In this document: positions 9,001 to 60,989 of the stretch, one piece after another
Layout of the letters: every line of letters starts with the position of its first letter
Numbering within the stretch: the first letter of the stretch is position 1
Source: Marsupella aquatica
Taxonomy: Eukaryota > Plantae > Marchantiophyta
Length of the DNA: 64,000 nucleotides
Direction: 5' to 3'
Assembly: GCA_973895155.1 (NCBI GenBank)
Contig: OZ316894.1
Location: 21,299,867 to 21,363,866, forward strand
Made by a program: the position numbers and the translations under genes
The notes under the pieces: generated by a model
Database searches by the model: none
What the model was told of the DNA's origin: nothing
What the model saw: the letters and a program-made list of their open reading frames with translations, nothing else

Positions 9001-9760
9001 AAACACCACAAGAAATACAAAAACAAGATGTATATTATAATGTCAACATAACAATTGGAGTTAAAATGGCTCATCCTTAGTCCCTTGTCTAATTTTTACT
9101 GTGCTATTCAAATAGTTTTCAAGGTTTAGTTATTTAAACCTGTTAGCGGGAACCCAGAAAATGTGAGTAGCAGGAGCTCTGAATCCTGAATTTTAAAAAA
9201 CCAAATTGTAATCAACTGAGGGACTCTACCAAGGTCACATGTGAAAGACAGTAGCACATCTAACTTGCCGCACTTAGGTGTTGTGCCAGCAATTGTATGA
9301 ATGCTACACATTTTTACAATGTGGATCCAAGAAATCAAGAAAGCAGGAAAACATAGTCAAAGAACAAATGAGAGAGAATAATGGTGGTGCAATGCATGTG
9401 GACATCCATGTGGTCCATAGTGGTCAATGTATCTAGACACTAAATTGTTCTCCACTACTATTGACTTTAGGATGCAGCATATGGCAACTCGTGAGGGTAT
9501 ACGCTATTTCCTCCACAACCACCTTTCCAGTATCAACCAGCACATAGAAACTGAACTTGTAGTATAGCTGATTTTTTTGAAGCTGCTAAAATGGTGAATG
9601 CAACTTTCAGTATTTTGTCTTATTCAAAATTCTTTTGTTATGAATTTTTATTTCAATGTGTCTTACCAAGGTGCATCCCTTGTATAGTTTAGATTTCCAA
9701 TTTATTCTGGCACCCCTCTAATTTTTTTAAATCTTTGCTATATTTTAAGATCATCCACCC

Positions 9761-10119
9761 TGTCATGCCGAGGGACAGTGCCTCTTATGCACATTGGCAT
9801 GTCCCTCGCCTGCCCGCTAGGTATGTAGTTAGGGCTAGTGTACTACCTGAGTTAGCGACATGTTCTTGTAGCAAGTCTGGGCCGTTCTTGAAGCAAATGT
9901 GCTTGTTAGTGTGACGTCAGGACTTTGCTTGCTTAGGGCATGTCTTTCTTTGTTGGTTTTCAGTTCTTCTTGAATCACTGTTGACAGAGCTCAGACAGTG
10001 CTCGTCGGTTCCGTACACGGGATTCACATAGTGATTCGTTAGATGCTCCCGGCCGATCTTGGCATCCTGCCGGTTTTCGATTCAATTTCAGTACAATTGT
10101 TTCTCTTACGCCTTTTATT
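9761..10119 (+). repeat. Terminal repeat A1 (359 bp; inferred downstream U3-R-U5 part of the LTR)
   Basis: Direct repeat of 18719-19077 (about 11 transitions by eye) and of 47696-48058. Confidence 0.95.
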
Positions 10120-10131
10120 CAAGAAGAACTG
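10117..10131 (+). promoter_or_regulatory. Primer-binding site complementary to the element's own LTR (Tf1-like self-priming PBS)
   Basis: ATTCAAGAAGAACTG at the end of A1 is the exact reverse complement of CAGTTCTTCTTGAAT at 9961-9975. No TGG-starting tRNA PBS is present. Confidence 0.75.
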
Positions 10132-11569
10132 TCGAGTTAGCGGTGAGGAGAAGAAGATTGCTCGTGGCGATTTCGACAATTTCTGGTGAAGCTGGTGCAA
10201 TTTCTATGGAAAAACGCTGAGCGATGGGGTGGAAGTTATGACTTTAAGTGTATACACTTAAGTATCAGTGTATACACTTAAGTCAAACAAGCCCCCCTCC
10301 CTCGTTTTCCTTTGTGTTTTTGCCCAGGCTTTTCTTTTCCGGCCGCAACCTGTTTCGCGACTTGCTGTTATCGATTGCTGCATCGACGCTGATTGCACAG
10401 GGCGCACCCGCGCTTGCATTTTTAACGACCTCTTTGGGGCCCTTTTTCGTTTACCGGCCACGACTGCCTCTGCCACCGCGCGCCCCTTTTCTTTCGTCCT
10501 TTTTCGCCTTGCCAAGCCTCGAAGTTCCTCCCTCCGTTTGTTTTCCTGCCTTTATCTCGCAGGCTGTGCGTACAGGGCATTGTGCCTCCCACTGCCAGCA
10601 TTTAATTAAGGAGAGGAGGGGGAGCAAGTACAAGCCGGGAGTCGAGGAGAAGGCACGGAGGCCTATGAGCATTAAAGCAGGGGGGAGGGGGGAGCCGAGG
10701 CTGGAACGCAAGGAGAGGAGGGGGACTGGCAGGAGCGAGTGTGCCAGGAGAGGGCACGAGGCCCTATGCTGAATTAAAGAGGGGAGGGGGAGTTCACATT
10801 CAATTCCCTTCTCGGGAGGCCCACAGTGCATTAATGAAGGGGGGGAGTTTACGTAGACTCCTTTCGAGAGTCCTCTTGCAGGGCACGAGGCCCTTTCACA
10901 ACATTAAAGAAAAGGGGGGGGGGGTACAATCGACTCCCTTCTCTCGAGAGTACTTTGGGAGCTCATACGGAGGGGGCGCGAAGCCCTATGCAGGGCTCGT
11001 GCCATTAAGAGGGCCCGGTTTCTTTTGCCCTCGCCTCGCCTTGGCTTTTCTCCTCTTTCCGGCCACCTGCGAGCCTGCCTCAACTATTTTCCCCTTTTTC
11101 GGCCTTTCTCGTTTTGTTTTTTTTTGCCGCGCCACGATTGACCTGCTGCCAGTTCCCGGGTCCACATATGGTCGATGTGTATACACTTACGGGGGCCCCT
11201 TTCACGTGTTGTAGGGCCCATTTCTTTCCCTTTGCTCTTGCTTTGTTCTCGACTACCTGCATAGGGCACCGTGCCGATCGGTCCTTCCTTTTTTGGGTCC
11301 ACATAGGGGCCCAACGTATACACTTTAAAGGGGCCCAATGTATACACTTAAGGGGGCCCCTATTCATGTTTTCAAGGGCCCATTCTTCCGGGATTTCTTT
11401 GTTGCCACCACATGTCATCTGCATAGACTTTGACAGTTTCTCAGCGCTTACACATTCTACACATTGCTGCCTTGCACCGTTTGTTTCCTTTGTGGGTTTT
11501 ATTTCTTAGCGTTGGGGCTGCCACTCCTTTTTCTTGTCAATTTCTTTCCCATTGGCACCCCGAGTGAGC

Positions 11570-13561
11570 ATGCAGCATGTCAGCCGACGAGCCAGGAGGT
11601 AGCAGCTCATCACCACCAACACCCCGGTACCACTTACGAAGTGATCCACGACCCTTGGTGCCAATTTCATTGGAGTCTCGGCAATTTTGACGACGTCCGC
11701 AGACAGCAGCAACACCCACACCACGCAATCCTTCTGCTCAATTTGGCGGTCGCTTCACCACTACCCCGAAGACTGCTATCACTTCCTTGCCATTTACCCC
11801 TTCTACATCAGTGGTTGTTCCAGATTCACCGACATACAACATGATGCTAGCCACTCATCTGGCCGCATTGAGCGCTTCAGCGGGCGGCCAGGCACTGTTT
11901 CTTTGCGTGAGTTCAAATCCACTTTCTACACTATCGTTTACAAATTGGAGTTGAAGTACGGCAGCAATTTCACAAATACTTTTGCATTTAAGCAGCTAGC
12001 CAGGTATGTGCACCATGAGGCTTTGGATGTGTATGAGCAGCACTCTCAACGGTTGCTTGTTGTCACACAATTGCCTAATCCTATCTATGCTAGTGCAATT
12101 GCAGTTGCCTCACAACTGGCATTACAGAATGCCATTGCAACCCATGCTGCTGCTCCTCCTACTTCCCCTCCTACTCTAGTTCCTACCACTGTGCCAGTTA
12201 CTCCCACTGTCTTGGCACAGGCTACATCAGGCATTTCTCCCACTATTGATTCTCCTGCCTTTGCTGATCCAGTGGCTGAGTTTTTCCAGGTTTTCGAATT
12301 GGAATTCCTAATCAAGAGTGCTGACAAAATCATGCAGTTGGCTACCTTTGTAAGGCAGCGCGATGAAACATTGAAGATGATGTATCGCCGGCTTCTCAAG
12401 CTGAAGGAGGACACCCAGAGCATCACTGACCTGGAGGCTGCGCATCGCTATCTTCGTGCATTGGAGGGCACACCAGCTCTCCATTCGCAAGTGTTGCAGC
12501 AAGTATTCTCAGAGTTTGGAGACAGCTATGCATTGCTCAATGTCTATGACACTGCTGAGAAACTTGAGTTGGCCCATGCACATTATGAGGCCAGTATTGC
12601 ACGTCCACCGCGATCCAGGTACCAGGCTGCTGCCCCTACATTGGCCACCCCTTCCCGTGTGGTACAATATGGTTCCAAGACCAAGCCAGCACATGCTGCT
12701 TTCATGCTGTCATCTTGCAACTACTGTGGTAACCCCAATCACAAGGCTAATGAATGTGATATTGTTGCTGAGGATCTGTCTTATGATTTTTGCGGGAAAG
12801 TGAGTCACTTGGAAGCAGTTTGTTTTGCCAAATTCCCACAGAGGAAGCAGCTACGATAACAGGCCACTCATCCTGCTCCTGTTTCCACTCCCCCACCAGC
12901 TAGGAGGGCTCCTATTGCATCAGCTACTCCTCCTTCCAATGGCAAAGCACCTGGTGCCAACAAATTGCCCAAGCAACAACAGAAGCAACCAGCTCAGAAG
13001 GAGGCTCACAATGCACAGGCAACTCAACTCCAGTCTCTGACTCATGAGGTTGAGTCCTTACGTGCCCAACTTGCCAATATCAAAGGCAAGTCAACTGCCT
13101 CTGCTGGTCCTTCTCAACCGGCTGGTCACGTGCAACCCATCCCTGGCTTAGGCACCACTGACAGTTCAGCACCTCTACCCCGCTCTTTCTATGGCTTGCC
13201 ATTTGATGCTCATATGGGTGAGTGTGTGTTGTCCTCTGCTACACAGCCTGGCCTTACGGCAGAATTTTCAGATTCATTCTGCCCTTCCTATTTTGCTTAC
13301 CAGCAGGCCAATGCTGCTTCCCGTACTGCTCCCACACGCCGCATTGTACAGGCTGATGGTCTTGCTGTTGGTCCTATGACTAGAGCCAGGGGAGCTCGGG
13401 CTGTCATGCCCCAATCCTTTCAGCCACTCACACTTGCTGAAGAGCGCACCTTGTTGACAAGGGGGGAGGGAGCTGCAGCTACATCCATTCCACCACCAGG
13501 TGCTGCTGACATTTCATAGGGAGTTGTTTCTCCTTAGCTGCTTGAGCATTTCACCTCCGGT
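11570..13561 (+). pseudogene. gag: Gag region of the retrotransposon polyprotein (capsid-like domain, CCHC zinc knuckles, Pro/Ala-rich linker) with in-frame stops
   Basis: ORFs 11687-12859, 12965-13519 and 13562-14917 share one frame, which also holds the ATG at 11570. Knuckles are CNYCGNPNHKANEC and (C>Y)DFCGKVSHLEAVC. Confidence 0.8.
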
Positions 13562-13959
13562 ATGGCACAAAGGATTCTTACAACTCCACTTTTCAGTTGC
13601 CATGATTTACAGCTGGATGCTAGAGCTATCATCAGAGCGCTAGAGGGCTCACTGCATTCTTCATCAGCCCCTGTGACACCAGTTTTGGAGGTCCAATCTC
13701 ATGTACATACTAGACCTTCTTCTTCTCCATTACATGCTTCCACTAGTTTGGCTATCCTAGTACCAATTTCCAGTGGTAGCGATGACAGTATTGCTGCAGA
13801 TTGTGTGACCAGAGCTACACTGGATTCTGGTCATACTGCTCCATCTTTCTTGACTATGTTGTTGAGTGGAAAGACTGTGGATACTAACTCCCTTCACAAG
13901 ATACCTCATCATCTGCCAAAAGTGGTGCCTAGTGACAGGACTTCAGTTTCCACCACCAT

Positions 13960-14340
13960 TGCCATTGTTGACAACAGGAATTCAATGGTCAAGTTGGAGG
14001 GTCACACTCCTCAGGTGGTCATGCTAGACACAGGCGCTCAACCAGTGATATTGGGCATTCAGTTTGCCAAGAAGATGGGACTGCTGACTGATCATTTACA
14101 GCAATCTAGGTGGCATATTCGGACTGCTAGTGGCACTGTGGAGGATGTGCTGGGTGAGAGTTCTACTTTACTCACTCTCACTTTTAATGGAGGTACAGAT
14201 CAGGAACTGCATTTCCCAGTCAGATGTTTGGTTACCAATGCCACTACGTATGATGTGCTCATTGGCCAGGAGGCTTTGTTCCCACCAGGTTTTACCATTG
14301 ACAATTGGCATGAGCATGCATACTACAGAGTTGATTGGCA
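13960..14340 (+). pseudogene. Retropepsin aspartic protease domain
   Basis: VMLDTGAQPVILG active site, IRTASG flap and YDVLIGQEAL motif in ORF 13562-14917. Boundaries are approximate. Confidence 0.9.
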
Positions 14341-14689
14341 TATTGATGGCTCACACTTGGGCTACATTCCACTTGATTTGCATGGTGCCCATACACCTAT
14401 GGCTCACCACTGTGTGTTGAAAGCAGTGCACACAACTACCTATGTCAACCACCCATTGCAGGATTGGATTGAGGAGGATGACGATGAGGTGGCTGCTGCA
14501 CATGCTGCTGCACGTATAGCAGCACTTTCCAGCAACGTGGATCATCAACCAGAGGTGGTACAACGGCTCCAAGCAGCCCATGGACCTTTGGTGGCTGCAT
14601 TGCGCAAGTTTGAAGACCTTGGGCAGCACAATGGACAGCCAATAGCCCCAATCTTGAGCGCACCAGTTACATGGACTCCTGCTCCGGAT

Positions 14690-15154
14690 GGCCTTACATT
14701 GCTTGAGCTTTTTGGTGGCATTTCTACAGGCCTGGAAGCTCTCCTACAGTCGGGCATGGTGGTGAAGCAATACATCTACGTGGACATTGATCCAGGTGCA
14801 AGGCAAGTGGCTGAATCCCGTCTGCTGGAATTTTTAGACCGATTTCCCCAACAGTTTCCACACAATGCATGGAAGTCTGCATTTTCTTTCTTCCCTCCAG
14901 ATATCCAGCTTGTCTAGCACCGACACTTAACCCTTCTTGGTTCCCTTGATTTGATCATAGCTGGTTGGGAATGCCAAGGGTCTTGGCCTGGTTTATCGAC
15001 ATTCTACCGGTACATGGGATGAACCTAGTCTTGAGGAGAGAGAACGGGCTATGGGCTTCCAATTTGGTACTACATGTCACACCAAATCACCAGGCTGGCC
15101 AGGAATGCTTTACTTGGCAGGGTAATGGATCTCAATGCTCTCACTTGGCTTTTG
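14690..15154 (+). pseudogene. DNMT3-like C5 cytosine methyltransferase domain inside Pol (stop, internal deletion, frameshift)
   Basis: Motif I LLELFGGISTG; motif II-like YIYVDID; motif IV DLIIAGWECQG (14948-14980, after TAG 14915-14917, same frame); motif IX EERERAMGF (from about 15033, shifted frame); motif X ITRLARNALLGRVMD (from 15086). Confidence 0.88.
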
Positions 15155-15499
15155 GTCACTTGCATCCTTTTTCAGATGTACATTCATTCAGCATCCTGAG
15201 TTCCAGCCCTACCACTCCATGGTGCTGTTACATGGCATCCAAACCAGGTGCACTTACCTCTATTCAACACTCACCGCTTCAGTCCAAGTGTTGGGGGGAG
15301 GAGGTCCCTTGTAATGTGGCTGACATTATTTTTGAGTTTCATGGTGTGGACCAACCTAGATCAGCAGGTACAACAGGCCTTGGAGAGGCCTCATCACCTT
15401 ATCAGCAGCATGCTAGCAGCTTGGACAGTGGAGAGGCTAGCACTTTTGGTTCTTCAAGCACGAGTACATCAGGTCTTATTCCTAGTGTTGCCAACTACA

Positions 15500-16920
15500 C
15501 ATTCATCATGGGCAACCACCTGAGTAAAAGACAGAAGGACTAGCTGTTGAATTTGCTCCTCAAGCATGAGAATGTGTTTGCTTTCTCTATGAAGGCGAGT
15601 ATGAAGGACTTGGGTAAGTGCAAGACTATGCAATTCTCCATTGAGTTGGCTGATGAAACACATATCTTCAGGCGGAGACACCGTTTGAGTAAGCATGAGT
15701 GGCAACTGGTGGATGAGAGGTGCCAAGAGCTCTATGAAGCTGGTCTTATTCAGCCATCTACATCAGATTTTGCAGCAGCTACAGTGATGCCAGCAAAGAA
15801 GGATTCCAGTGGATTGTGGACAAAGAAGCGCATGTGTGGGGACTACAGGCCATTGAACCTGGTCACACCCCAGGATAGGTACCCCATGCCGCGGCCAGAG
15901 GAGCTATTTGACAGCATTGGAGACTCAGACATCTTCACTCTTGTGGATCTAAGGCAAGGCTTCAACCAGATTTTGCTGCTTGCAAATTAAGGATCGCAAG
16001 AAAACAACTTTCCATGGTAGTAACCAACTATGGGAGTGGTTGGTGATGCCATTTGGCTTGAAGAATGCGCCCATATTCTTTCAAAGAGTCATGGACCAGG
16101 TTCTTCAAGGTGCTGAGTTTCTGAAATGCTACATTGATGATGTGTTGGTCCACAACAAAGGATTTGACCAGCATCTACTTGACCTTGAGGAGCTATTCAT
16201 GAGGCTTAAGAAGGTGAACCTGAAGATACACCCCAAGAAGTGTGAATTTGTTGTCAGATCAGTAGTATACCTTGGGCACCGCATTCTTCCAAATGGAACC
16301 ATGGCTCACTGGGCCAAAGTGGTATCCATCTTGGAAATGCCCACTCCTACTGATGTTCACACTCTTAGGAGCTTTATTGGGTTGTGCAATTACTACCGGA
16401 TCTACATCAAAGATTTCAGTACCATTGCACATCCATTGTACTCTTTGTTGAAAAAGAATGTGACTTGGACATGGAGTACAGATGCTGAGGGAGCATTTGC
16501 CACTTTGAAGGAGAAGCTCTCAGAATACCCGGTGCTTAGAAGACCTGATTTCAACAAGGTCTTTGTGCTACACACAGATTGGAGTGCCCTTGGGATTGGT
16601 GCCATTCTGGGCCAGCATGATGAGGAAGGTAAAGAGTATGTCATTGCCTATGCATCCAGGAGCAACAATCAGGTAGAGAGTCATTATTCTTCTTATGAGG
16701 GTGAATGCCTTGCTGTTGTGTGGGTTGTCATACATTACAGGCCCTACCTCTATGGGACCAGGTTTGTTCTCTACACCGACCACCAGCCCTTGAAGTGGTT
16801 GATGACCAATGACAAGCTTACGGCAAGCTTGCTCGTTGGGCACTCATACTCCAGGAGTATGATTTTGAGGTAATTCATAGGCCTGGTGTGACACATCAAA
16901 ATGCTGACACTATGTCTCGC
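15500..16920 (+). pseudogene. pol: Reverse transcriptase and RNase H domains (frameshifted near 15985 and 16820)
   Basis: RMCGDYRPLN, DLRQGFNQI, MPFGLKNAP and YIDD (16130-16141); RNase H motifs LHTDWS, EGECLAVVW and YTDHQPL. Confidence 0.95.
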
Positions 16921-17049
16921 AGCCCTTTGATTGCCTCTGATGATTCCTCAGATGCACGATAGGATTTCGACCAGGTTTCCATCCTGCCTACATTTCATGC
17001 ATCTACCTATCTTGCTTTGCTGCCATGCTACATTGTTGACCAACCTGTG

Positions 17050-18501
17050 GTGGACATATGGGAGGACAACAACACTCTGAGATTTTTGCAGCATGGGGAG
17101 TACCCCATACATGTTACTGTTGCCCAGAGAGACCGAATTCAACAAAGGTCCAAGCGTTACTTGTGGAAGGGAGATCATCTCGTGCGCTGCTTGCCAGACA
17201 GGGAAGTGGTGGTTCCACCCATTCATGAGAGGATTGACCTTATCCGTAAGGTACATTCTGAGCTTGGTCATTTTGGCGTTAAGAGGACTTACAGCCTCTT
17301 GGTCCCTCATTATCATTGGAGAGGCATGCATGGCCAAGTTCGAGATGTTATTGCCCGGTGTGAACAGTGTGATAGGGTGAGGACTTCTTTCACATCCCGA
17401 CAACCCACACTTCATCCACTCCCTATTCAGGGCATGTTTTATCGTTGGTCATGTGATTTGGCTGGAGAATTACCCCTCACGTCTCGGGGTAATCTCTACA
17501 TCATGATCATGATAGAGCATTTCTCCAAGTGGATAGAACTTGTGGCATTGCCAGATAAGACCTCCCGTAGCACCAGCCAGGCATTCCTACAACAAGTTCT
17601 CAGCCGCTTTGGAGCTTGTGCAGAATGTTTCACTGACTAGGGCTCAAAGTTTAGAGGAGAGTTCCAAGAGCTGCTTGATCAGGCCCTCATTGATCATTGT
17701 CAGACATCACGAGATCACCCGCAGGCAGATGGCTTGGCAGAGCGCATGGTTCAGACATGCAAGAAGGGCCTCCGAAAGATCTGCCTCACCAAAAACAAGG
17801 AGGATTGGGACCTGGCCTTACCCTACATTGCCATGGGGTATAGGATGTCCAGACATGCATCACTGTCTAACTTTTCTCCCTACTTCTTGTTGTTTGGTCG
17901 TCACCTAGTTCCACCTTCTGCTATTGCTGCTCACATGCTTCAGGTGGTGGACTTGGATTCAGCTGTGACTTGGTCTGATGTGATCTCTGCGAGGGCTGCC
18001 CTATTTAGGAGAGTTATGCCCATGGCCATGGAGAATTTGGCCATTACACAGCACAGGGACACACTGCGTTGTGCACACACACGAGGGGGCACTTTTCAGC
18101 TCAAGGTCAGGAAGTTTGATGTGGGAGATTTTGTGTACTTGCAGCGACAAGCTAACGACACCCTTGACACCTCTACCAGTCGTACGATTCACAGGGTTAA
18201 AGCTATTCGACCGTCTGGAGTGCTAGAGTTACAAGGGGCAGATGGGCGCACAATTGCTGACAATGCCAAGAATTGCGCCCCTTGTCATCTGCCTAACCTG
18301 GATCCCACCATTGTGACTTCTACTTGGATTCCACCTGTGGACTACCCTTGCAAAGTGTGTTTACGAATTGATGATGCTGACCAGATGCTGCTGTGTGACA
18401 ATTGCAATGGAGGGTACCATCTTTTCTGCCTTCGGCCTGAACTTACCCAGGTGCCAGAAGGGTTATGGTTTTGCCCTTCCTGTGCTCCACATGCTACCTG
18501 A
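17050..18501 (+). pseudogene. DDE integrase with C-terminal PHD finger (one in-frame stop at 17638-17640)
   Basis: HHCC motif (HSELGH...CEQC), catalytic WSCDL / TD*GS / GLAERMV. PHD CKVC...LLCDNC...YHLFC...WFCPSC at 18349-18483. Confidence 0.95.
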
Positions 18502-18533: not shown

Positions 18534-18540
18534 GGGGGGG
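18534..18540 (+). promoter_or_regulatory. Polypurine (G7) tract immediately 5' of repeat B1
   Basis: GGGGGGG directly before ATACAGAGG in both copies (also 51229-51235). Confidence 0.65.
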
Positions 18541-18716
18541 ATACAGAGGTATACACCTCCACTACGTACATACCACCTCATTTGCTTTTTCTTGGCACTT
18601 GTAAATGTGATGGGATTTTTTCTATGCATGTTGGTTGCTAGCAGCTTGCACATATGCCTTGTCGGTGACTTTTATGTTTTTGATACACTATGGCTACGAT
18701 ACTATATGTCACGACA
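18541..18716 (+). repeat. Terminal repeat B1 (176 bp; inferred upstream U3 part of the LTR)
   Basis: Direct repeat of 19078-19253 and 51236-51411. Confidence 0.95.
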
Positions 18717-18718
18717 GC

Positions 18719-19077
18719 TGTCATGCTGAGGGACAGTGCCTCTTATGCACATTGGCATGTCCCTCGCCTGCCCGCTAGGTATGTAGTTAGGGCTAGTGTA
18801 CTACCTGAGTTAGCGACATGTTCTTGTAGCAAGTCTGGGCCGTTCTTGAAGCAAATGTGTTTGTTAGTGTGACGCCAGGACTTTGCTTGCTTAGGGCATG
18901 TCTTTCTTTGTTGATTTTCAGTTCTTCTTGAATCGCTGTTGACAGAGCTCAGACAGTGCTCGTCGGTTCCGTACACAGGATTCACACAGTGATTCGTTAG
19001 ATGCTCCCGACCGATCTTGGCATCCTGCCGGTTTTTGATTCGATTTCAATACAATTGTTTCTCTTACGCCTTTTATT
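18719..19077 (+). repeat. Terminal repeat A2
   Basis: Copy of 9761-10119, separated from B1 by the dinucleotide GC. Confidence 0.95.
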
Positions 19078-19253
19078 ATACAGAGGTTTACACCTCCACT
19101 ACGTACATACCACCTCATTTGCTTTTTCTTGGCACTTGTAAATGTGATGGGACTTTTTCTATGCATGTTGGTTGCTAGCAGCTTGCACATATGCCTTGCC
19201 GGTGATTTGTATGTTTTCGATACACTATGGCTACGATACTATATGTCACGATA
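19078..19253 (+). repeat. Terminal repeat B2
   Basis: Copy of 18541-18716 (about 7 differences), fused directly to the end of A2 (TTTTATT|ATACAG). Confidence 0.95.
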
Positions 19254-20988
19254 ACCCTGGAACAAAGCTGGTTGAATTTCAAGCCCTTATTCTCATGAGT
19301 ACATAAGAAATGATCTAAATAATGTGCACACCTTATGTCTTTAAGTATTACTCATAGTTTTGTGTCCTAAATTTATGGTTTTAATTAGTTTGAGTGTCAA
19401 TACCTAAAGTAAGTACATAAGTATCTCTACTCATGTACATTATGTGTACATCCCAATACCATAAACTTAAAATTTTCTGTTCATTATTATTTTTCTTTAC
19501 ATGTGTATTTTTATTTTTGTACCTTATGTGCACAAGTTTCAATATCAGACTCTACTTATTCCTAGTCAATGTCTTGTTTATATTTTAATTAGAACATCTG
19601 TATATCCCTAAAAAACAAAAAATGATGCATGTTCCAGTATGAGCATGCTATATAGCTTCTTGTTCATTTTTGGAAAAGAAGAACACTTCCACATATTGGG
19701 GAATTTGTTTTGTGTTTCTGAAAGTGGGGAAACTTAGCCCCACAGCTTGATTCCCCTTTGAACCTCAGGTACAGCCAAATGCAGAGGGGACTCCAAAAGA
19801 CAAGCCAATGTATAGTGCACTGCGTTTCATATGTACCACCCGCTGGGGTCTCACTTCAAGGGAGATCCATATCAGGCCCTAAGTTTTTAGGTAATAAAAT
19901 ACCCCAAAATTTAAGTAAAAGAATTTTTGTACAAATGAATTCATGCAATATTTTCAAATTTGGTGTTAAAAACCCTCTCGATTTTGTAATTCTCAAACCC
20001 TGAATTAGAAAACAACTCTAATGTTTTTGAACATTTTTTTTTAGAATCTTCCACCGAATTCAATTGGAGAAAACAAAGGAAAAAGCCAAGGCCAACCAAA
20101 GAATCTTCCACCCCATTCAATCTTCCTTGATATGGTCTCCTGCCTTTCTGAACTTGCGGTTTCATTTTTAGTTCTTTGAGAGTGGGAAACTGAGTAGAGT
20201 AGCAGGTGAGATTGACCAAAGATTGTTTATGATTAACCTTCTAGGTGCTGATCGCTTAAGTTTCTATTTCTTGTTAGGTTTTGGAGAGGAAGGGAAACCT
20301 CAACTGATATCTTAGTTCTGCGAGGAATCCTAATCAAAATGGGCTTGTCCTCTTCATTTCAGATATATTTGCTGCGCCTGGCTTGCCATAAACAAACATT
20401 TAAAATGCAAGCTGTTTGCTTCGGCTGTCAAGATAGGTTGAGTGAAACAGTGAGTGATAAATCAGTTGAAGCCGGTTTAGGCTTGCTGGTTAAGTGAGGA
20501 TCAAGTTTGATTGGCATCATCAAGAAAAGCTCCTATCCGGATAAGATAGACCACAATATTCAAATGGGTAGTTGTGGCTAATGGGGGTCTGTGGGTAGGT
20601 AGTTTCTTCTAGGTAGAAAACTGGCTAAGGGAAGACAAAAACCTGGAGATTGTTTACTGACTTAATGGAAGACATTTCAGTGCGGTGTCATGTGGCAAAT
20701 TTAGGTCACTAATAAAACTGCAAAATCAACTCGTTAAACCGCTTCTGTCCATTAGTCAGTACTTAATGCTCTTAAGAAATTTAAAAAGTGTACTAAAAGT
20801 GACTATCTTGTCCTCCCATAACTTTGGAGATAGCGGTGGCTTAAGATTTCAATAAAGATCCCGATAAGTTAAGATTATCTTCCAACTGTGCCTGCATATG
20901 GCAGCCAATTAGCTCAATTAGCGTCCTTCTTCTTCGAGGTCGATGTCCGTGATGAGTTGCTGAAAAAAGCTATTCGCTACATCTGTTC

Positions 20989-37499: not shown

Positions 37500-39721
37500 C
37501 ATGAGGGTAATTAAAAATCTCGCCCAACACCGATATAACGGTGCAGCTCTCGCTGTCCATTCGAGCCGAGGACGTCATATTCCCCAGTCTCCAACGTCAT
37601 TCCCTGAAACAAGAACATTATTATTATTCTGAATCGGGTCCCCCCCTCCTCTTTTTAATAATTTTCGTCCCTGACAAGAATCTTCCCCTTGCAGAGCGAG
37701 AGGACCCGTACGGCACGCAGAAAGAGAATAAATCGATATCGGCATTTCGTAATCTCGCCCTACGGGAAATAATCCTCACCCGCCGATCCGCTCCGCATCG
37801 ACGGCCCTCCGCCCACCGAACGCTGCACAAAGGCGAAATTATCAAATACAGGGGAAATTGTGGCGAAATGAATCTTTCGTGACGTGGCAGGGGTCAGGGG
37901 TGACGGAATGACGGTATTCCAACAGCTGATCTCATCAGACGGCCAGGATCGGATCATGGGCTCTCGTGACGGGGGGGCCCCAGCCATCTTCGCCCATACG
38001 CCTCAAGGGGCTGTCCCTCGAGGGCAGCACTCTACCGGGCCGTTAATAAAAGGGCCGAGTCCTTCCTTTATCCCTGACTTCAGTGGTCGCACGCCCAGCA
38101 CCGTCCGCTCTCCCTGCTGCCCTTCCTTTCCTCACAGCCCCCCACTCTACTTGCGCCCTTCCGCGGGAGTGTGAGAGAGAGAGAGAGACCCGTGTAGACG
38201 GAGACCAAAGGCGACGAGAAGAGGAACAGAGGGAGAGAGGTGAGAGAGCGAGAAGAGCATATAATAGGCACACAAAGCGTTTTGGACTACGGTGTTACGT
38301 CGACGTTTCTTCGCGGCTTCGTGGTGCAATTGGTTGGGCCGGACACCTGGCTCGTGGCTCCTGGTGCGAAAGAGGAGACACCCACTCATCGACGAATAAG
38401 CAAGCGCAAGAGGAGGAGAGGAGCGGAGCAGAGAGGGAGAGGAGAGGAGAAGAGGGAAAGGCCTAGTCAGTCGTTGGTTCATTTATCATTTTCTCATTCA
38501 TTCGGTGTTGTGGCTGCGGTCTCCTGCTTCTGCTGCTGCTGCCACCACCGCGGCTTCTAGTTCGGCTTCGGGTTCGGCGCACGAAGGTGTTGTGGGAGTG
38601 GTGGGTTTGGGATTTCTATTACCCGCTGCTGCTGGGTGGATTGAATGCGGGTGAATGCGGCTGCTGCCGCTGCCTGGCTTCGACTCGAACTCGAAGTGTG
38701 ATTGAGTTTTGTTCCCCGTCAACCGGGTGGAGTTGATTCGGATGCGAAGATTTGCGGATGATTGCATTTTTGCACTGTGAAACTGCGGAAGTAGGGATTT
38801 CGTCGTTGTGTCGCTCGTCGGGAAGGGCACGGGAAGAGGAGTTGGTGCGCCATTTCCAGCGTCTTTGAATCTTTGACTTCTGTGCCCGCTCGGAGCTGCC
38901 CCGCTTGTCGTGGATGTTTGCGTTGGGCGGTGGCAGTGAGTTTTGCTCCAAGTGCCCAACCGCAACTTTTTTTAGCATTCGCTGAGTCCTGGTTTCCACC
39001 GTGGGTCGGTGTGCTGTGTCCGTGTTACTTGCCATTAGCACGCGCGGCACTAGCGGAGTGCACGGGTTGGGGCTGGTAGCGCGAACGAGCTGCGAAGAGT
39101 AGGAGCGAGTGCGGACCGGAATCAACTTGCGGGACGGCTTGTTTGAAGGGGAGAAGGTTCTAAGCAGTGTGTTTTGCTGCTCGATTGCTCGCTGAGTCTT
39201 CGTCAGGCCTTTCTTTCCCTGGATACTCAATCTGCGGCACGTGAAGTGCTTTGTGGTCACGTCGGCTGCGAGCTCTTGAAGCTCTGGTTCTTTCTATTCT
39301 CTCTGTTCTTCTCGGATTCCATCTCTGCCAATCGGCTGTTCGTATTTCTGTTAGTGTTGTAGTTCTCGATGGGCGTCAGGCATCATCGTCTCTCCTAGCA
39401 TTGATCATTTGTAGTAGTCGCGATATTAGTACAGTTTTGTAGTGGCCATTTTTTATGATCCTGGTCCCTTATTATTTACTCTCTGAAGTAGTCTCAAAGT
39501 TCTGATTTCCTGGCAAGCTACTGGAAAGTGCATGTTCTGGACACGATTTACGGCTTCGCCAGTGGCATTTGCAATCAGTTTCGTTGGGAAGATCCTATCA
39601 GATCAGGTGTCTGGAATTCGTCGCTGTCACGCAATACTGGTCAGAGGGTTCAGTTGGGATTAGAGTTCAGGATTGTTTCGAACGTAAGATCAGAAAAGTT
39701 CGACATAAACTGGATCCAAGG
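37500..39721 (+). promoter_or_regulatory. CpG-rich promoter and long 5' leader region of the S40 gene (GA repeats, ABRE-like ACGTGGC near 37882)
   Basis: GC/CpG-rich, with a GA microsatellite near 38172 and GA-rich leader, directly upstream of the CDS. TSS and introns were not determined. Confidence 0.4.
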
Positions 39722-40558
39722 ATGATGGCCAGAATTGGAAACGTTGGCCCCGAAGCATTCTCCCGAAGTGATCGCATCTCGAACGGATTAAGCACAGTGA
39801 TGCGCGACCACATGAGTTCTAGTCGGGTGGATATGCTATTGGGGCTGGCGTCGCCTCAGTCATCGTCACCTGCTTTTGATGTGATTGACTTGAATGAGGA
39901 GGACATCTGGGGCTCGGAAGAGAGCGCCAATTTTTCCAGCAATGTCACGACCAGTCCGGTGGCTGAGGTAAAGAAGTTTGAGATGAGTTTTGTTGGCGGC
40001 TCATCGAGCATTAGCAAAGAGGTTGTCGAGCCCGATCCTTTTAGATTCATCAATAACGGTAGAAGGTGGCGCAGCCGTGAAAAAGATACCGGGCTATCCA
40101 TGGCATACGGGGACGCCGGGCGAACCCGAGGGTTTCCAAGTCCTCTGAATCGAGCAGCTAATGTAGCCAATGGCACGTTCTCCCCCACCGCAAATGGGAA
40201 CAACGGGCGGACACCATCGCGGCTGATTCCGAATAGGGAAGCTTTGCATGCATCGTCTCCAAGTAGTAGGGTGCAGCATCAATCTGCTCCCGTAAATGTG
40301 CCCGACTGGTCGAAGATCCTAGGCGCAGAGAGAAAAGGCCCTTTCACTAAAGCTTTCGTCGATGACGATGTTGTACCTGAGAACGACGAAGATGAGGAGA
40401 GACTCCCTCCTCACGAGCTCATTGCTCGAGAGTATGCGCGGAGTCACATCACGACGTTCTCCATGTGCGACGGTGCTGGAGGGACTTTGAAAGGTAGAGA
40501 TCTGAGCCGTGTCCGCAACGCCGTGTTGAGGAAGACCGGCTTTCTGAACGATCAATGA
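39722..40558 (+). CDS. S40: Senescence regulator S40 / DUF584 family protein (single-exon CDS)
   Basis: DLNEEDIW motif, HQSAPVNVPDWSKILG, LPPHELIAREY and FSMCDGAGGTLKGRDLSRVRNAVLRKTGF. The first in-frame ATG is 39722; the ORF track start at 39569 is a TTG. Confidence 0.92.
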   Translation: MMARIGNVGPEAFSRSDRISNGLSTVMRDHMSSSRVDMLLGLASPQSSSPAFDVIDLNEEDIWGSEESANFSSNVTTSPVAEVKKFEMSFVGGSSSISKEVVEPDPFRFINNGRRWRSREKDTGLSMAYGDAGRTRGFPSPLNRAANVANGTFSPTANGNNGRTPSRLIPNREALHASSPSSRVQHQSAPVNVPDWSKILGAERKGPFTKAFVDDDVVPENDEDEERLPPHELIAREYARSHITTFSMCDGAGGTLKGRDLSRVRNAVLRKTGFLNDQ

Positions 40559-46019: not shown

Positions 46020-46330
46020 ATGAGAACAACCGGGTCAATTGGGTCCACATCTAAAATTTGCGGCTGACCCTTGTTCTCTCTCCTTTATTGGGTCTCCTAT
46101 AGTTGGGATCTTGTCTCTCACAAGTTTGAACAACTTGGTCAATTGGGTCCACATTTAAAATTTGTGGCTGACCCTTGTTCTCTCTCCTTTATTGGGTCTC
46201 CTATAGTTGGGATGTTGTCTCGCAAGTTTGAACAACTTGGTCAATTGGGTCCACATTTAAAATTTGTGGCTGACCCTTGTTTTCTCCCCTTTATTGGGGT
46301 CTCCTGGAGTTGGATCCTGTCTCATAACTT
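46020..46330. repeat. Tandem repeat, about 106-bp unit x3
   Basis: GAACAAC...GGTCAATTGGGTCCACAT...GGCTGACCCTTG occurs three times. Confidence 0.9.
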
Positions 46331-47695
46331 GGCGCTTTTATTCTTTTGGCGGTGTGATATAATAAACTGGATAGATCAGTACACTAGCCAATAAATCTAG
46401 GGGCTCCTTGGTGCCACCAAGTTATTAGTCATGAATGCTGAATGTCCTTGCTAGTTTTCAACTACTGTAGCCAGGGCTGTACTCTAGAGTTGAGGGACTT
46501 CTCTATTTTGGTAGGAAGTAGGAGAATAGAATCTTTTGGTCTGGCCTGGTAGGTGTTGGGAGGACGGCCTCAAGAGGGCCAGCAAGGCTTGAGGGGGGGT
46601 GCAAAATGATTACATCTCGGGTCATTTTTTACTCTTTCTAGGTTTTTGGGGGTTTGCATATGAGTTTCATGTTTGTCCTCTCTTGATCTCTTTTTGCTTT
46701 TTCTCCATTGTACTTTTTTTTGGTAATTTGGTCCTTCTCCTTTAACTGGAGTCACTTTAAAACTGGTCGCTGTCCTTTTGCCATTATGCTTTATTTGGCG
46801 TTTTCTTAGTCAATTGCTCCTTCTTCTTGTATTGGAGTCCCTTTCAATTGGTGGGTGTCCCGATGCATAGAGTGGCTACCAATAAAGCAACAAGACGTCC
46901 GCCAGAGGCCAACGAGGCCATTGGATGGGACTGACTGTCCTGTCCAGTTTAGAGGCATAAAAGGACAAACCAACGTACTCCGTGGCATAATAGGCCTGCC
47001 CTAGATTTGCAGCTTCTAGTTCAGAAGTATATATGAAAATAGGTACAAGGGTGGGGCTGTCCTGAGTTGCAGCCCATCTGGAATTGGATGGTGTGTAATT
47101 CTTAGGGTTTTTACTATGCAGGGTCAGTCGTTCATTTTGGTATTGTGCAGGCTCTTTTTGGAGCTCTGATTCGCAATGTGGGACATGATTTCCCTCTGGA
47201 ATTTCGCTAGAGGGATTAGAAATTGGCAATTGTGGAAAGCCAGTTGCTCATTTGAGAAAGAGAAAATTTGTATTTTTTGTGTGGGAATAAGCTCCGACTA
47301 AGTCTTAAAATTGATTGGAATCATGGACTGGCTCTGGAAAAGAATGTTGGGCGTTGTAGAATGGAGTTGGTTGGTAGGATGATTGAAGACTTTGGTCATC
47401 TTGGAGGATTATATGGCTTGCATGATAAGATGCTAATGATGACTTCTGATCAATAGTGGTTTTTTGATCTGCCTTGAATTTTTGGTTTCTTACACTCTTG
47501 CTCATCTTGATTATGCTGTGAGCTGAGTATGCTAGTTACCTGTAGTTAGCGGTCTTTACAAATGGATTATTCTCCTGTAGATTTTTGTTGGAGTTCAGTA
47601 GTTCAGATTTTTTATTTTTTTGGCTTGATCTCTTCCTAAACTCTGGATTGAGTTGGCCCTCAGATCCTGATCTTTGCCCATGGATTTCATGGAGC

Positions 47696-50600
47696 TGTCA
47701 TGCCGAGGGACAGTGCCTCTTGTGCACATCGGCATGTCCCTCGCATGCCCGCTAGTATATAGTTAGGGCTAGTGTACTACTTGAGTTAGTGTCATGTTCT
47801 TGTAGCGAGTCTGGGCCGTTCTTGAAGCAAAGGTGTGTGTTAGTGTGACGCCTGGACCCGGTCCTACTTAGGGCATGTTGTTCTTTGCCATTTTTCAGTT
47901 CTTCTTGAATCGCTGTGAGACAGAGTTTCTCAGAGGCTACTCGTCGGTTCCGTACACGGAATTCACACAGTGATTCGTTAGATGCTCCCGGCCGATCTTG
48001 GCATCTCGCCGGTTTTCGATTCGATTTCAGTACGTTTGTTTCTATCACGCCCTTTATTCAAGAAGAACTGCCGAGTGAAGGGAAGAAGATCAGAAACGAT
48101 GTGTTTCTCAATTGCTCGCGACGGTCAACACTTTCCGTCGACAGCAGTGCAATTTATTTGAAGAAAAATCTAGTGATGGAGTTAGAGTTAGATTTTTCTT
48201 TGTATACACATCACTTATGTGTATACACTTAAACTTGCGGCGTGTGGGAGAAATACGGGAGGCAGCACTGGCCTGCTGGGAAGCAAAATAGGAAGGGCAT
48301 AATGAATCTGAAAATTCTGCTGTAAGGCCAAGCTGTGTAGCAGAGGACAACACACACTCACCCATATGAGCATCAAATGGCAAGCCATAGAAAGAGCGGG
48401 GTAGAGGTGCTGAACTGTCATCTCTACCACTGGAAATCGGTACTGGGATAGCCAAACCAGTGGAAGCATGCAATGGAGAAGAAGAAGGTCCAGTATATAC
48501 ATGAGATTGGACCTCCAAAACCGGTGTCACAGGGGCTGATGAAGAATGCAGTGAGCCCTGTAGCGCTCTGATGATAGCTCTAGCATCCAGCTATAAATCA
48601 TGGCAACTGAAAAGTGGAGTGGTAAGAATCCTTTGTGCCATACCGGAGGTGAAATGCTCAAGCAGCTCAGGAAAAACAACTCCCTGTGAAATGTCAGCAG
48701 CACCTGGTGGTGGAATGGATGTAGCTGCAACTCCCTCCCCCCTCGCCAACAAGGTGCGCTCTTCAGCAAGTGTGAGTGGCTGAAAAGACTGGGGCATGAC
48801 AGCCCGAGCTCCCCTGGCTCTAGTCATAGGACCAGCAGCAAGACCATCAGCCTGTACAATGCGGCGAAGTCCACGAAGAACTTTGCCTGGTTCGTGGCGT
48901 AGAGGTTTACCAGCGCGGCAGTATTGGCTGCTGGTCCTATGACTAGAGCCAGGGGAGCTCGGGCTGTCATGCCCCAGTCTTTTCAGCCACTCACACTTGC
49001 TGAAGAGCGCACCTTGTTGGCGAGGGGGGAGGGAGCTGCAGCTACATCCATAAAACTTTGAGGAGTTTTATTGGGTTGTGCAATTACTACCGGATCTACA
49101 TCAAAGATTTCAGTACCATTGCACACCCATTGTATGCTTTGTTGAAAAAGAATGTGACTTGGACATGGAGTACAGATGCTGAGGTAGCATTTGCCACTTT
49201 GAAGGAGAAGCTCTCAGAATACCCGGTGCTGAGAAGACCTGATTTCAGCAAGGTCTTTGTGCTACACACAGATTGGAGTGCCCTTGGGATTGGTGCCATT
49301 CTGGGCCAGCATGATGAGGAAGGTAAAGAGTACGTCATTGCCTATGCAACCAGGAGCAACAATCAGGCAGAGAGTCATTATTCTTCTTATGAGGGTGAAT
49401 GCCTTGCTGTTGTGTGGGCTGTAATACATTACAGGCCCTACCTCTATGGGACCAGGTTTGTTCTCTACACCGACCACCAGCCCTTGAAGTGGTTGATGAC
49501 CAACGACAAGCTTACTGGCAAGCTTGCTCGTTGGGCACTCATACTCCAGGAGTATGATTTTGAGGTAATTCATAGGCCTGGTGTGACACATCAAAATGCT
49601 GACACTATGTCCCGTAGCCCTTTGATTGCCTCTGATGATTCCTCAGATGCATGGCAGGATTTTGACCAGGTTTCCATCCTGCCTACATTTCATGCATCTA
49701 CCTATCTTGCTTTGCTGCCATGCTACATCGTTGACCAACCTGTGGTGGACATATGGGAGGACAGCGACACTCTGAGATTTTTGCAGCATGGGGAGTACCC
49801 CATACATGTTACTGCAACCCAAAGAGACCGAATTCAGCAAAGGTCCAAGCGTTACTTGTGGAAGGGAGATCATCTCGTGCGCTACTTGCCAGACAGGGAA
49901 GTGGTGGTTCCACCCATTCATGAGAGGGTTGGCCTTATCCGTAAGGTACATTCTGAGCTTGGTCATTTTGGCGTTAAGAGGACTTACAGCCTCTTGGTCC
50001 CTCATTATCATTGGAGAGGCATGCATGGCCAGGTTCAAGATGTTATTGCCCGGTGTGAACAATGTGATAGGGTGAGGACTTCTTTCACATCTCGGCAACC
50101 CACACTTCATCCACTCCCTATTCAGGGCATGTTTTATTGCTGGTCATGTGATTTGGCTAGAGAATTACCCCTCACATCTCGGGGTAATCTCTACATCATG
50201 ATCATGATAGAGCATTTCTCCAAGTGGATAGAACTTGTGGCATTGCCGGATAAGACCTCCCGTAGCACCAGCCAGGCATTCCTACAACAAGTTCTCAGCC
50301 GCTTTGGAGCTTGTGCAGAATGTCTCACTGACCAGGGATCAGAGTTCAGAGGAGAGTTCCAACAGCTGCTTGATCAGGCCCTCATTGATCATCGCCGAAC
50401 GTCACGAGATCACCCACAAGCAGATGGCTTGGCAGAGCGCATGGTTCAGACATGCAAGAAGGGCCTCCGGAAGATCTGCCTCACCAAAAACAAGGAGGAT
50501 TGGGACCTGGCCTTACCCTACATTGCCATGGGATATAGGATGTCCAGACATGCATCACTGTCTAACTTTTCTCCCTACTTCTTGTTGTTTGGTCATCACC

Positions 50601-51411
50601 CAGTTCCACCTTCTGCTATTGCTGCTCACATGCTTCAGGTGGTGGACTTGGATTCAGCTGTGACTTGGTCTGATGTGATCTCTGAGAGGGCTGCCCTATT
50701 CAGGAGGGTTATGCCCATGGCCATGGAGAATTTGGCCATTGCACAGCATAGGGACACACTGTGTTATGCACACACACGAGGGGGCACTTTTCAGCCCAAG
50801 GTCAGGAAGTTTGATGTCGGAGATTTTGTGTACTTGCAGCGGCAAGCTAACGACACCCTGGACACCTCTACCAGTCGTACTATTCTCAGGGTTAAAGCTA
50901 TTCGACCGTCTGGAGTGCTAGAGTTACAAGGGGCAGATGGGCGCACAATTGCTGACAATGCCAAGAATTGCGCCCCTTGTCATCTGCCTAACCTGGATCC
51001 CACCATTGTGACTTCTACCTGGATTCCACCTGTGGACTACCCTTGCAAAGTGTGTTTGCGAATTGATGATGCTGACCAGATGCTGCTGTGTGATAATTGC
51101 AATGGAGGGTACCATCTTTTCTGCCTTCGGCCTGAACTTACCCAGGTGCCAGAAGGGTTATGGTTTTGCCCTTCCTGTGCTCCACGTGCTACCTGACTTT
51201 TCTTCAGCCCTCCTTTTAGCTGTGGTCTGGGGGGGATACAGAGGTTTACACCTCCACTACGTACATACCACCTCAGTTGCTTTTTCTTGGCACTTGTGAA
51301 TGTGATTGGACTTTTTCTAAGGATGTTGGTTGTTAGCAGCTTGCACATATGCATTGCCGGTGACTTGTATATTTTCGATACACTATGGCTACGATACTAT
51401 ATGTCACGACA
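47696..51411 (+). mobile_element. Gypsy retrotransposon copy 2 (same family; internally deleted and rearranged; structure A-internal-B)
   Basis: Starts TGTCATG (47696) and ends CACGACA (51411). A 4-bp TSD GAGC lies at 47692-47695 and 51412-51415. A = 47696-48058, B = 51236-51411. Confidence 0.95.
49058..51196 (+). CDS. pol: Uninterrupted 3' half of Pol: RT connection, RNase H, DDE integrase, PHD finger (5'-truncated, no true start)
   Basis: 712-aa open frame nearly identical to copy 1, with LHTDWS, HHCC, D-D-E and a C4HC3 PHD at 51044-51178. Confidence 0.9.
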   Translation: MRSFIGLCNYYRIYIKDFSTIAHPLYALLKKNVTWTWSTDAEVAFATLKEKLSEYPVLRRPDFSKVFVLHTDWSALGIGAILGQHDEEGKEYVIAYATRSNNQAESHYSSYEGECLAVVWAVIHYRPYLYGTRFVLYTDHQPLKWLMTNDKLTGKLARWALILQEYDFEVIHRPGVTHQNADTMSRSPLIASDDSSDAWQDFDQVSILPTFHASTYLALLPCYIVDQPVVDIWEDSDTLRFLQHGEYPIHVTATQRDRIQQRSKRYLWKGDHLVRYLPDREVVVPPIHERVGLIRKVHSELGHFGVKRTYSLLVPHYHWRGMHGQVQDVIARCEQCDRVRTSFTSRQPTLHPLPIQGMFYCWSCDLARELPLTSRGNLYIMIMIEHFSKWIELVALPDKTSRSTSQAFLQQVLSRFGACAECLTDQGSEFRGEFQQLLDQALIDHRRTSRDHPQADGLAERMVQTCKKGLRKICLTKNKEDWDLALPYIAMGYRMSRHASLSNFSPYFLLFGHHPVPPSAIAAHMLQVVDLDSAVTWSDVISERAALFRRVMPMAMENLAIAQHRDTLCYAHTRGGTFQPKVRKFDVGDFVYLQRQANDTLDTSTSRTILRVKAIRPSGVLELQGADGRTIADNAKNCAPCHLPNLDPTIVTSTWIPPVDYPCKVCLRIDDADQMLLCDNCNGGYHLFCLRPELTQVPEGLWFCPSCAPRAT

Positions 51412-52299
51412 GAGCCTCCCTGATGTGGTTCAGGCTTGAACTTCTCCTGCCCTAATAGGGTGTCTGAATCTTCGTAGTCCGGGCTACCAACGGCAAAAAG
51501 ATAAGGCTGATACTACCACCAGGATGTGGCTTTCAGGCATGCATAACCAAGAGAAATTCGAGAGGGATTGTAGCCAGTTGGCCTGCCATTAGCAAAAAAG
51601 CCCAGGCAAAAAAGTGTGGTCGCCAACTCGGTCTCCCGCGCACTTTAAGTCTGCGTCCAGCCCAGCAAACTCTCCGCCCAAGGAAAAGCCTGAGTCTTGT
51701 AAGTTTGAGACGCCCTAATGCAAGATACCTCTTAGGTTAAATCTGGCCCACTAGTTTCGGCTTGGGAAAATATAACGGCCCTCCCTCTGTTCAATTCTTG
51801 TAAAGACCACCTCCCCTCTCCCCGCCCCCCCCCCAACAACAAAATAAACTTTATAGCTCAGGTACTGTAGAGTAAGGGCAGACAGCAGAGGCCCCCGGAG
51901 CAAAGGACACTGTAAATTGGGCAGGACAATTCTGGGCAGGTAATTGTAGGTCAGAGAGAGGGTCAGAGAGAAGATTTTTTTTGTCAGCGATAAAGGACAA
52001 AAACTTTCGGGCCAAGTCACAGGCCTCGAAAACCGGCCAATGATTCGGCCCTACAGTATATGATTATGCCACTGCCCGGCCATCCCGACTTTGTAACTGT
52101 ACCGCCCATCTCTGTCGCTTATCCCCTAAACTGACGGCCAGTATTGAAAGATTCTCCCAACGAAAATCTCTCTCGTCCGGATGCGGATCGTTGCGCAAAA
52201 CAAATCTTTCCGGCTGCCCGGGTGGCCCACCACATCTGGGCCTGCCCCTCCCTGCCCGCCAACGTGCGAGGAGTTTATGTGGTCCCTGTTACTTCTTTG

Positions 52300-52720
52300 G
52301 AGTAAAATTTCCCTTTTGACACCCAAAAATTCGAAAATGATGCTCCCATGTACCATGACACGTTTTACACCTTTACTCATTTCTTTACTCATTGACAATT
52401 TCCCTTTTTGACACCCAAAAACTCGAAAATGATGCTCCCATGACACGTATTACGCCTATACTCATAGACGCTCCCATAGACTACTAGACTTTCCACAGTC
52501 TACTCACTGACACTCCCATGGACCATGACATGTTTTACACCTTTGTTCAATGATGCTCCCATGACACGTATTACGCCTATACTCATAGACGCTCCCATAG
52601 ACTACTAGACTTTCCACAGTCTACTCACTGACACTCCCATGGACCATGACATGTTTTACACCTTTGTTCAATGATGCTCCCATGGACCATCATGTGTTTT
52701 GCACCTTTACTCATGGACAG
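52300..52720. repeat. Tandem repeats including a near-exact 119-bp duplication
   Basis: ATGATGCTCCCATG units; about 52430-52548 is repeated at about 52549-52667. Confidence 0.85.
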
Positions 52721-57312: not shown

Positions 57313-58069
57313 CCTATGTCAGGAGGTATTAAAAAACCCGACCATTGGTCTTGCTTTTTGACATATCCTTGCTATGTACAATAGACAAAAAATGACAATT
57401 CTTTACAATGTATATAGTAAGCAAATAGCCTACACCATTGGAGATGCTCTAAAGAGTTTCTAATTGCAAACTAATGTTTTTGGTCAGGACTTAAATGATT
57501 TGAACAAGCATTCATGGGAAACTCATTTATTGCTATGTATTGGGCCCTGCCATCAATGCTGCCCGTGATAGTGCACTGCCCATGGTGCAAAGATGATGAA
57601 GACATAAGGGTATATGTTCTCAAATTTTTGAATACTACCTAAGGTAACAGATCCACATGAATGTAGAGTTTGCTTGACATTAGCAAGGGTAGCCCCGCCA
57701 GAGCAAGTGAGGTTTGAGTTAAGCTTTGTAAGCCAACCAGCTTTTGCACAAATCCCCATCCCCAAGTGGAATCCATGAAAACCTTTTGAACACAAAAGAC
57801 TTGGTACCTGGAAAAATTAGAGGTCCTAAATGGACACAGGCAAGCTAGCAGCATCTAAGGGTGGGACCTAAAGCTGTTGGAGTTTCCCATGAACGGCCCA
57901 CCCGAAAATCAGCTGTCCACCTAAATCTTGAAACACCCTTCAAATGTCACTTCTAAGGTTCACCCCACAATAGGGACAATGTTTCCTTGAAAAGGAAAAG
58001 GTGGTGGAAAAGGGGCTATTAATATTATACTCTCTGCTTTGGGTGATACTGGCTCATTTATTTCCTCTT

Positions 58070-60490: not shown

Positions 60491-60519
60491 GTCCCAAAGG
60501 AAAAGCAACCCAATAAAGG

Positions 60520-60820: not shown

Positions 60821-60989
60821 CCACAGAACATTGAAAAGCCTGGTAAAGCGTGGTAAAGAGTCTCGATGATTGCCCGTGTTTCCAGGGTCTATAGTCACAC
60901 GTTTGCTGCACACACAGAAGGCGAAGACTTCGTCCTCGTCCATTCGGACTTCACGGACACGAAGAACTCATGCTCTTTGTTTGTTTTCT

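Follow-up and report, generated by a model that had tools for sequence, protein, structure and literature searches.

The palindrome at positions 18710-18725 of the window, the whole 64,000-nucleotide stretch of Marsupella aquatica DNA that was analyzed, is confirmed, and insertions of a Gypsy-type retrotransposon begin and end at it. It splits the LTR into a 5' part (A) and a 3' part (B) with GC between them. From the arrangement of these parts in the window and in related elements, we propose that the ends of the cDNA are probably joined to each other and that the integrase then cuts at the CA^GC palindrome inside the LTR.

Results

A Gypsy-type element with a single whole LTR

Pfam domains detected in the element are zinc knuckle, protease, RT, RNase H, H2C2, rve and a C-terminal PHD finger. 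As in the Ty3/Gypsy group, Pol has the order PR-RT-RH-IN with an HHCC and DDE integrase, and Ty3 Gag-Pol is the best relative with a solved structure. A tyrosine recombinase had no match in the 30 frames scanned, including the frames of at least 120 aa of both copies, and rve is present. Similarly, a chromodomain, the C-terminal domain of the chromoviruses (Tcn1, Chlamyvir) of REXdb, was not matched by Pfam in the scanned frames, the PHD finger being found there instead. Among named homologs, that of the liverwort Calypogeia fissa is the closest (79%), and further ones come from Riccia, Klebsormidium, and Closterium, which points to a bryophyte as the likely host; no relatives were found among viral contigs. 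The element is a Gypsy-type LTR retrotransposon coding for gag-PR-RT-RH-IN-PHD.

A begins directly behind a run of seven Gs, and the 12-mer that directly follows B is complementary to another within B (z -2.6). The element thus has the polypurine tract before the LTR and the primer site after it that are typical of Ty3/Gypsy. The 12-nt complementarity between primer site and B is present in three families of differing sequence and was not found in L075. The RNA start is a prediction, with a TATA-like box about 30 nt upstream of it in two of the three families. Between polypurine tract and primer site the LTR is A-GC-B, running from AT to TT with neither TG nor CA at its ends. Given the positions of the tract and the primer site and the standard scheme of reverse transcription, this A-GC-B LTR would be what RT makes, and it would offer the integrase no CA. 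In place of two whole TG...CA LTRs, the element has one whole LTR (AT...TT), a B at the left and an A at the right. Copy 1 is laid out as B-internal-A-GC-B-A and copy 2 as B-internal-A, both between 4-bp duplications (Table 1). The split direct repeats A1-B1-A2-B2 that characterize PAT and Ngaro elements are also present.

The sequence-only reading considered the integrase frame at 49058-51196 intact. It is open for 712 aa and retains the HHCC and DDE residues, but it deviates at eight of the 194 columns that are strongly conserved, and the copy that contains it is a deleted one; an open frame therefore does not imply an active enzyme. In copy 2 (47696-49051) there is a large internal deletion with a fold-back inversion of gag-protease sequence (48236-48866). 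Copy 2 differs from copy 1 by 11% in B and by 4% in pol; given the greater divergence of B, it may be a recombinant. The leader of copy 1 has two occurrences of a palindrome centred on GTGTATACAC and that of copy 2 has one (10245-10280, 48216-48231), the leaders being otherwise unalignable; this palindrome could be an RNA dimerisation loop. The window also contains several arrays of tandem repeats, their units about 100-370 bp long (46024-46323, 52306-52714 and 58065-61450), and a host gene at 39506-40558 coding for a Senescence regulator domain (PF04520), the mark of a land plant.

Table 1. Features of the two element copies, in window coordinates
Feature	Position	Strand	Remarks
Internal palindromic att site CACGACA-GC-TGTCATG (putative)	18710..18725	+	A end, 2-bp spacer 18717-18718, B start; same site in relatives
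Left target-site duplication ACCC, copy 1	9757..9760	.	single ACCC in related empty sites
B1, LTR 3' part (predicted rest of U3, R, U5), left end of copy 1, TG start	9761..10119	+	96.9% identical to B2
Predicted RNA 5' end and self-primer	9961..9972	+	complementary to primer site
Primer binding site, predicted self-priming type	10120..10131	+	immediately after B1
Broken gag-pol, copy 1 (zinc knuckle, protease, RT, RNase H, integrase H2C2 and rve, PHD finger)	11645..18501	+	in-frame stops, frame changes
Polypurine tract G7	18534..18540	+	same position before A in relatives
A1, 5' part of RT-defined LTR, AT start, CA end	18541..18716	+	self-comparison
B2, completes sole whole LTR A1-GC-B2 (18541-19077)	18719..19077	+	self-comparison
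B/A joint, head-to-tail fusion of LTR end and LTR start, blunt	19077..19078	+	one-letter-shorter variants in reads; variable in relatives
A2, second A copy, right end of copy 1 (CA -> TA)	19078..19253	+	96.0% identical to A1
Right target-site duplication ACCC, copy 1	19254..19257	.	matches left
Left target-site duplication GAGC, copy 2	47692..47695	.	matches right
B of copy 2, left end	47696..48058	+	then primer site 48059-48070
Open RNase H-integrase-PHD frame of internally deleted copy 2	49058..51196	+	ORF and domain search
A of copy 2, right end, CA end	51236..51411	+	after polypurine tract 51229-51235
Right target-site duplication GAGC, copy 2	51412..51415	.	matches left

The palindrome lies at both ends of the copies

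As had been reported from the letters of the window, GACAGCTGTC at 18713-18722 is a perfect palindrome, and its extension to 16 bp (18710-18725) contains one mismatched pair. Both copies were said to run from the TG of this site to its CA. The starts agree (TG at 9761 in copy 1; copy 2 from 47696), as does the CA with which copy 2 ends at 51411. Copy 1, which stops at 19253, ends in TA instead of CA, a single C>T. It is preceded by ACCC and followed by ACCC again, as copy 2 is by GAGC. The GC spacer, expected to be dropped at the ends, is missing from both right ends and from the left end of copy 1, while the left junction of copy 2 is ambiguous by itself because the duplication GAGC ends in GC. 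Retention of GC at the ends was rejected, as the target-site duplications account for the apparent GC.

Copy 1 is nested in another repeat (flanks 9500-9760 and 19254-19500), and related contigs that lack the insertion join the two flanks with a single ACCC. Element sequence also breaks off into diverse, unrelated flanks in contigs of the same host group: among the best-supported joints listed, this was behind 18716 in at least nine and at least five contigs and before 18719 in at least nine. None of the best 15 joints listed from a second read mapping phased A-GC-B with the primer site.

The 64-kb window contains 66 perfect 10-mer palindromes and 12 sites equal in quality to 18710-18725, and we accordingly rejected rarity of the palindrome as evidence. 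What is above chance is that it lies at both ends of the element and that the 4-bp duplications beside it match.

The site is conserved in related elements

To follow the site in relatives, we used the best 80 of 567 confirmed metagenome stretches, with 64-81% protein identity to the window element; these 80 loci come from few metagenomes and probably from one or few hosts. Four lacked a usable 3' end, the other 76 merged into 59 clusters, and four more were dropped as the same insertion, leaving 55 loci. The LTRs of the 80 loci gave no blastn match to A or B of the window. Despite the unalignable LTRs, A ends in CACGACA and B starts with TGTCATG in these loci. The comparison of the palindrome with flanking LTR sequence that the sequence-only reading put forward came out in favor of the site: it is conserved, and the surrounding LTR sequence is not.

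The layout is A-B-A in 29 of the 55 merged loci, A-only in 19, cut or disrupted A-B in four and other in three. Of 48 right ends, 40 are at the terminal CACGACA, three at its upstream duplicate, one is mutated, three are disrupted and one coincides with the end of a contig. The three at the duplicate (L019, L052 and L053) have the att half-site in a 14-nt tandem duplication and stop at its upstream member; A would be shorter in them, or the first CA would be the one used. No insertion with A-GC-B at its left end was seen among the copies examined.

A variable spacer had been named as grounds for abandoning the site. The spacer is 2 nt long in 36 of 37 A-B joins and 3 nt in one. Its letters are GC in 14, AC in nine, GT in seven, AT in four, and AA and TC in one each, two insertions being counted twice; GC or a C>T/G>A derivative accounts for 34 of the 37. 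Two insertions, each found in two samples, differ at the spacer (GC versus AC), so spacer decay took place after insertion. The 4-bp duplication is exact in five of nine two-ended loci, has one mismatch in two and is absent from two (L001 and L035); L059 was left out of this test because of nesting. This length falls within the 4-6 bp of Ty3/Gypsy, and both window copies have exact duplications. One family member is inserted in the pol of another (L057-L059).

Beyond these loci, seven more distant contigs (41-54% identity) were inspected. The site lies 50-120 nt past the G-run in four (L081, L082, L083 and L086); two others end too early and one has no 3' end. L082 reads A-GC-B-A and then flank. 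The order pol-A-GC-B-leader-gag in L081 and L083 was rejected as proof of a circle, both being likely collapsed repeat assemblies. In L081 two long frames are open, and its 127-bp ends are identical. L081-L087 are eukaryote-type retrotransposons in bacterial genome bins, likely as contamination.

The B/A joint is variable

Among 28 B/A joints, 11 are blunt, five are minus-two, four are plus-one and eight are otherwise altered. A2 differs by 8.5% from the A1 of its own copy and by 12.1% from others; its own A1 is the nearest for 11 of the 28 A2 segments and not for the other 17. Such closeness of A2 to its own A1 would be expected of two segments that share a template in every cycle. Joint types and the A-only form are unclustered on the pol tree (26 changes versus a shuffled mean of 24.7), a test of low power because the tree is weak, with five of 44 inner branches well supported. 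L057, a long branch, was left off this tree, and the joints of L003 and L070, first labelled minus-two, were reassigned manually to plus-one. Indels at the joints of old copies may have arisen after insertion. Under standard reverse transcription A2 would lie beyond the repeat of the first jump and could not be inherited through the RNA, so the joint would have to be remade. Overall, the B/A joint appears to vary like a fresh end-join.

Use of the palindrome is one-sided

A B followed by the primer site is always preceded by flank and never by A, in 12 of 12 loci and the two window copies. The mirror form, B-A-GC-B-internal-A, is thus absent from these 14 5' ends. Cutting of a symmetric two-LTR circle would be expected to yield it in 40-50%, and the chance of seeing none is 0.0008 or less unless mirror forms collapse or are lost. 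The sequence-only reading had a circle opened by a staggered cut at an LTR-internal att site. The 2-nt spacer and the conserved site agree with the internal att; the absent mirror form speaks against symmetric cutting of the circle. A symmetric-circle model hence needs a bias to the site of the 5' LTR. Either the site adjoining the end-join would be preferred or integration would come before joining. Candidate causes of a bias are an integrase at the cDNA ends that uses the joint-adjacent site (natural with an A of 8 bp), a left LTR that is finished first, and selection for a whole 3' LTR.

Discussion

A proposed route from joined ends to insertion

In the reading we favor, self-primed reverse transcription would make a linear cDNA with two A-GC-B LTRs, and in each cycle the right end (B) would be joined afresh to the left end (A) to give a two-LTR circle. 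On each strand of the palindrome in the 5' LTR, beside the joint, the integrase would cleave behind CA, which would yield CA-3'OH ends that carry 2-nt GC overhangs. The GC would then be lost during strand transfer, staggered by 4 bp, and the repair that follows. Only the B-internal-A-GC-B-A product would keep a whole 3' LTR and so be able to copy itself again. B-internal-A copies would be dead ends; a one-LTR circle, cutting at both sites or A-A recombination at a later time would give rise to them. HIV-1 integrase cleaves both strands of a palindromic LTR-LTR junction behind their CA, a reaction that needs its DDE residues and four central bases (PMC1905944), and retroviral LTR-LTR circles are able to integrate (PMC4372172). 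A point against the proposed cut is that the site, with a spacer of 2 bp where HIV has 4 bp of required sequence, differs in geometry from the in vitro precedent.

An internal att site is common to this and two other readings, and is very likely. One of the two, which we think unlikely, reverses the order of events: the integrase would cut the left palindrome on the linear cDNA and insert both CA ends, those of a small A piece and of the body, with no free circle. The host would then mend the chromosomal B-A break by end-joining, giving A-B-A, or by A-A annealing, giving A-only. The same products with variable joints would result, the many A-only copies (19 of 48) would be explained, and so would the one-sided use of the palindrome if the left LTR becomes double-stranded first, as the standard RT scheme suggests. 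However, the intasome would have to hold a piece as small as 8 bp in Gypsy-7a, and each insertion would entail a double-strand break, yet only a small number of the 86 new Gypsy-7a insertions are described as unusual (bioRxiv). It is somewhat less likely again that the internal cut is real and the B/A joint comes from RT jumping between the cDNA ends, not from host ligation. Such jumping has been proposed for split-repeat elements with a tyrosine recombinase. Blunt, plus-one and 2-nt microhomology joints would also fit terminal addition by RT with jumping, and the layout equals the A1-B1-A2-B2 of PAT and Ngaro (PMC4157794), but the larger joint deletions in L014, L016, L050 and L071 look more like repair.

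It is very improbable that an ordinary LTR element was reshaped by rearrangement, self-nesting or misassembly and that the palindrome is incidental. The dozen palindromes as good in the window would suit such an origin, as would the internal rearrangement of copy 2 and the existence of self-nesting (L057). This account is largely refuted: the same ends, spacer and 4-bp duplications are found in dozens of independent insertions with several unrelated LTR sequences, and A-GC-B was not seen at the left end of any insertion.

Elements of Chlamydomonas

The Chlamydomonas repeat library contains similar structures (PMC9940879 Dataset 15). The internal entries finish in CA-GC in 11 of 16 ends examined, and the 10-bp core matches shortly behind a G-run in nine of 11. 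In Gypsy-3, -6, and -22, the piece from the purine tract to GC, an A of 45-55 nt, is repeated at the LTR end. Gypsy-7a_cRei, which made 86 new insertions in one lab strain (PMC9940879), is like the window element a PHD-bearing Gypsy, as are other Chlamydomonas Gypsy elements, and its internal entry ends in a purine tract, 8 bp and GC. The eight letters preceding this GC are the last eight of its LTR entry, and the authors' legend describes a left LTR without its final 8 bp (PMC9940879). Likening the families by sequence layout alone, we read these missing 8 bp as the probable A piece of Gypsy-7a_cRei. The two elements differ in the length of A (8 bp versus 176 bp) and in the primer site, which starts with TGG (tRNA type) in Gypsy-7a and is predicted to be self-priming in the window element. 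The parts of the library paper that deal with these ends propose no mechanism for them (PMC9940879).

Relation to other known elements

KnitGypsy-Dnmt3 of Klebsormidium nitens also has Gypsy domains with DIRS-like A-coding-B-A-B repeats, described in one sentence of a figure legend (PMC5890265). It has a methyltransferase, whereas the window element has none and carries a PHD finger. Homologs of the window element include proteins from Klebsormidium and proteins with a methyltransferase; as in KnitGypsy-Dnmt3, a cytosine methyltransferase domain (PF00145) is present in Pol of the relatives P0068 and P0079. The passages on KnitGypsy-Dnmt3 give no ends, att site, duplication or mechanism (PMC5890265).

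With canonical Ty3/Gypsy and Tf1/sushi elements the window element shares PR-RT-RH-IN, a polypurine tract, a self-complementary primer site and a short duplication (PMC6317226, PMC7175516); Tf1 is self-primed by the complementary 5' end of its RNA (PMC7175516). Unlike them, it has no pair of whole LTRs and no RT-defined TG/CA ends, and it has an internal att and an inserted head-to-tail LTR joint. In the cleavage of retroviral two-LTR circles, a DDE integrase likewise cuts a palindrome after CA on both strands, and the circles can then integrate (PMC1905944, PMC4372172; see also PMC1180852). There the palindrome is the joint itself, with four central bp, and the route is a back-up; here it is inherited inside the LTR, apart from the joint, with two central bp, on what is apparently the normal route. 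PAT, TOC, and Ngaro have the A1-B1-A2-B2 repeats (PMC4157794) but use a tyrosine recombinase, in contrast to the DDE integrase, protease and 4-bp duplications of the window element. The element thus combines Gypsy function with the repeat layout of PAT and Ngaro and lacks one defining feature of each.

The layout has been in print twice, in the legend on KnitGypsy-Dnmt3 (PMC5890265) and indirectly for Gypsy-7a (PMC9940879), in neither place with a mechanism. The REXdb survey used an LTR finder requiring two TG...CA LTRs, and its main text does not mention PHD (PMC6317226). In a literature search, with most subscription papers outside its scope, neither an internal att nor a permuted LTR was found to have been proposed for elements with an integrase.

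Implications for LTR elements of the green lineage

It is a long-standing question whether circular cDNA can be what LTR elements normally integrate from; in HIV it is a back-up route only. The joined-end route is a dead end in textbook elements. The elements described here seem unable to integrate otherwise, as their copied ends have no CA. If the proposal is true, a DDE integrase would be cutting both DNA strands site-specifically, 2 bp apart. The chances are about even that a widespread green-lineage Gypsy group, spanning Chlamydomonas and bryophytes, has as its sole way to integrate a two-LTR circle with joined ends, opened by its DDE integrase at the inherited palindrome of the 5' LTR, with A having grown from about 8 to about 180 bp in different lineages and the lab-active Chlamydomonas element among its members. 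The activity of Gypsy-7a_cRei makes joining followed by cutting testable now. Element finders that require two whole TG...CA repeats and duplications would be missing or mis-cutting an abundant class of algal and bryophyte elements.
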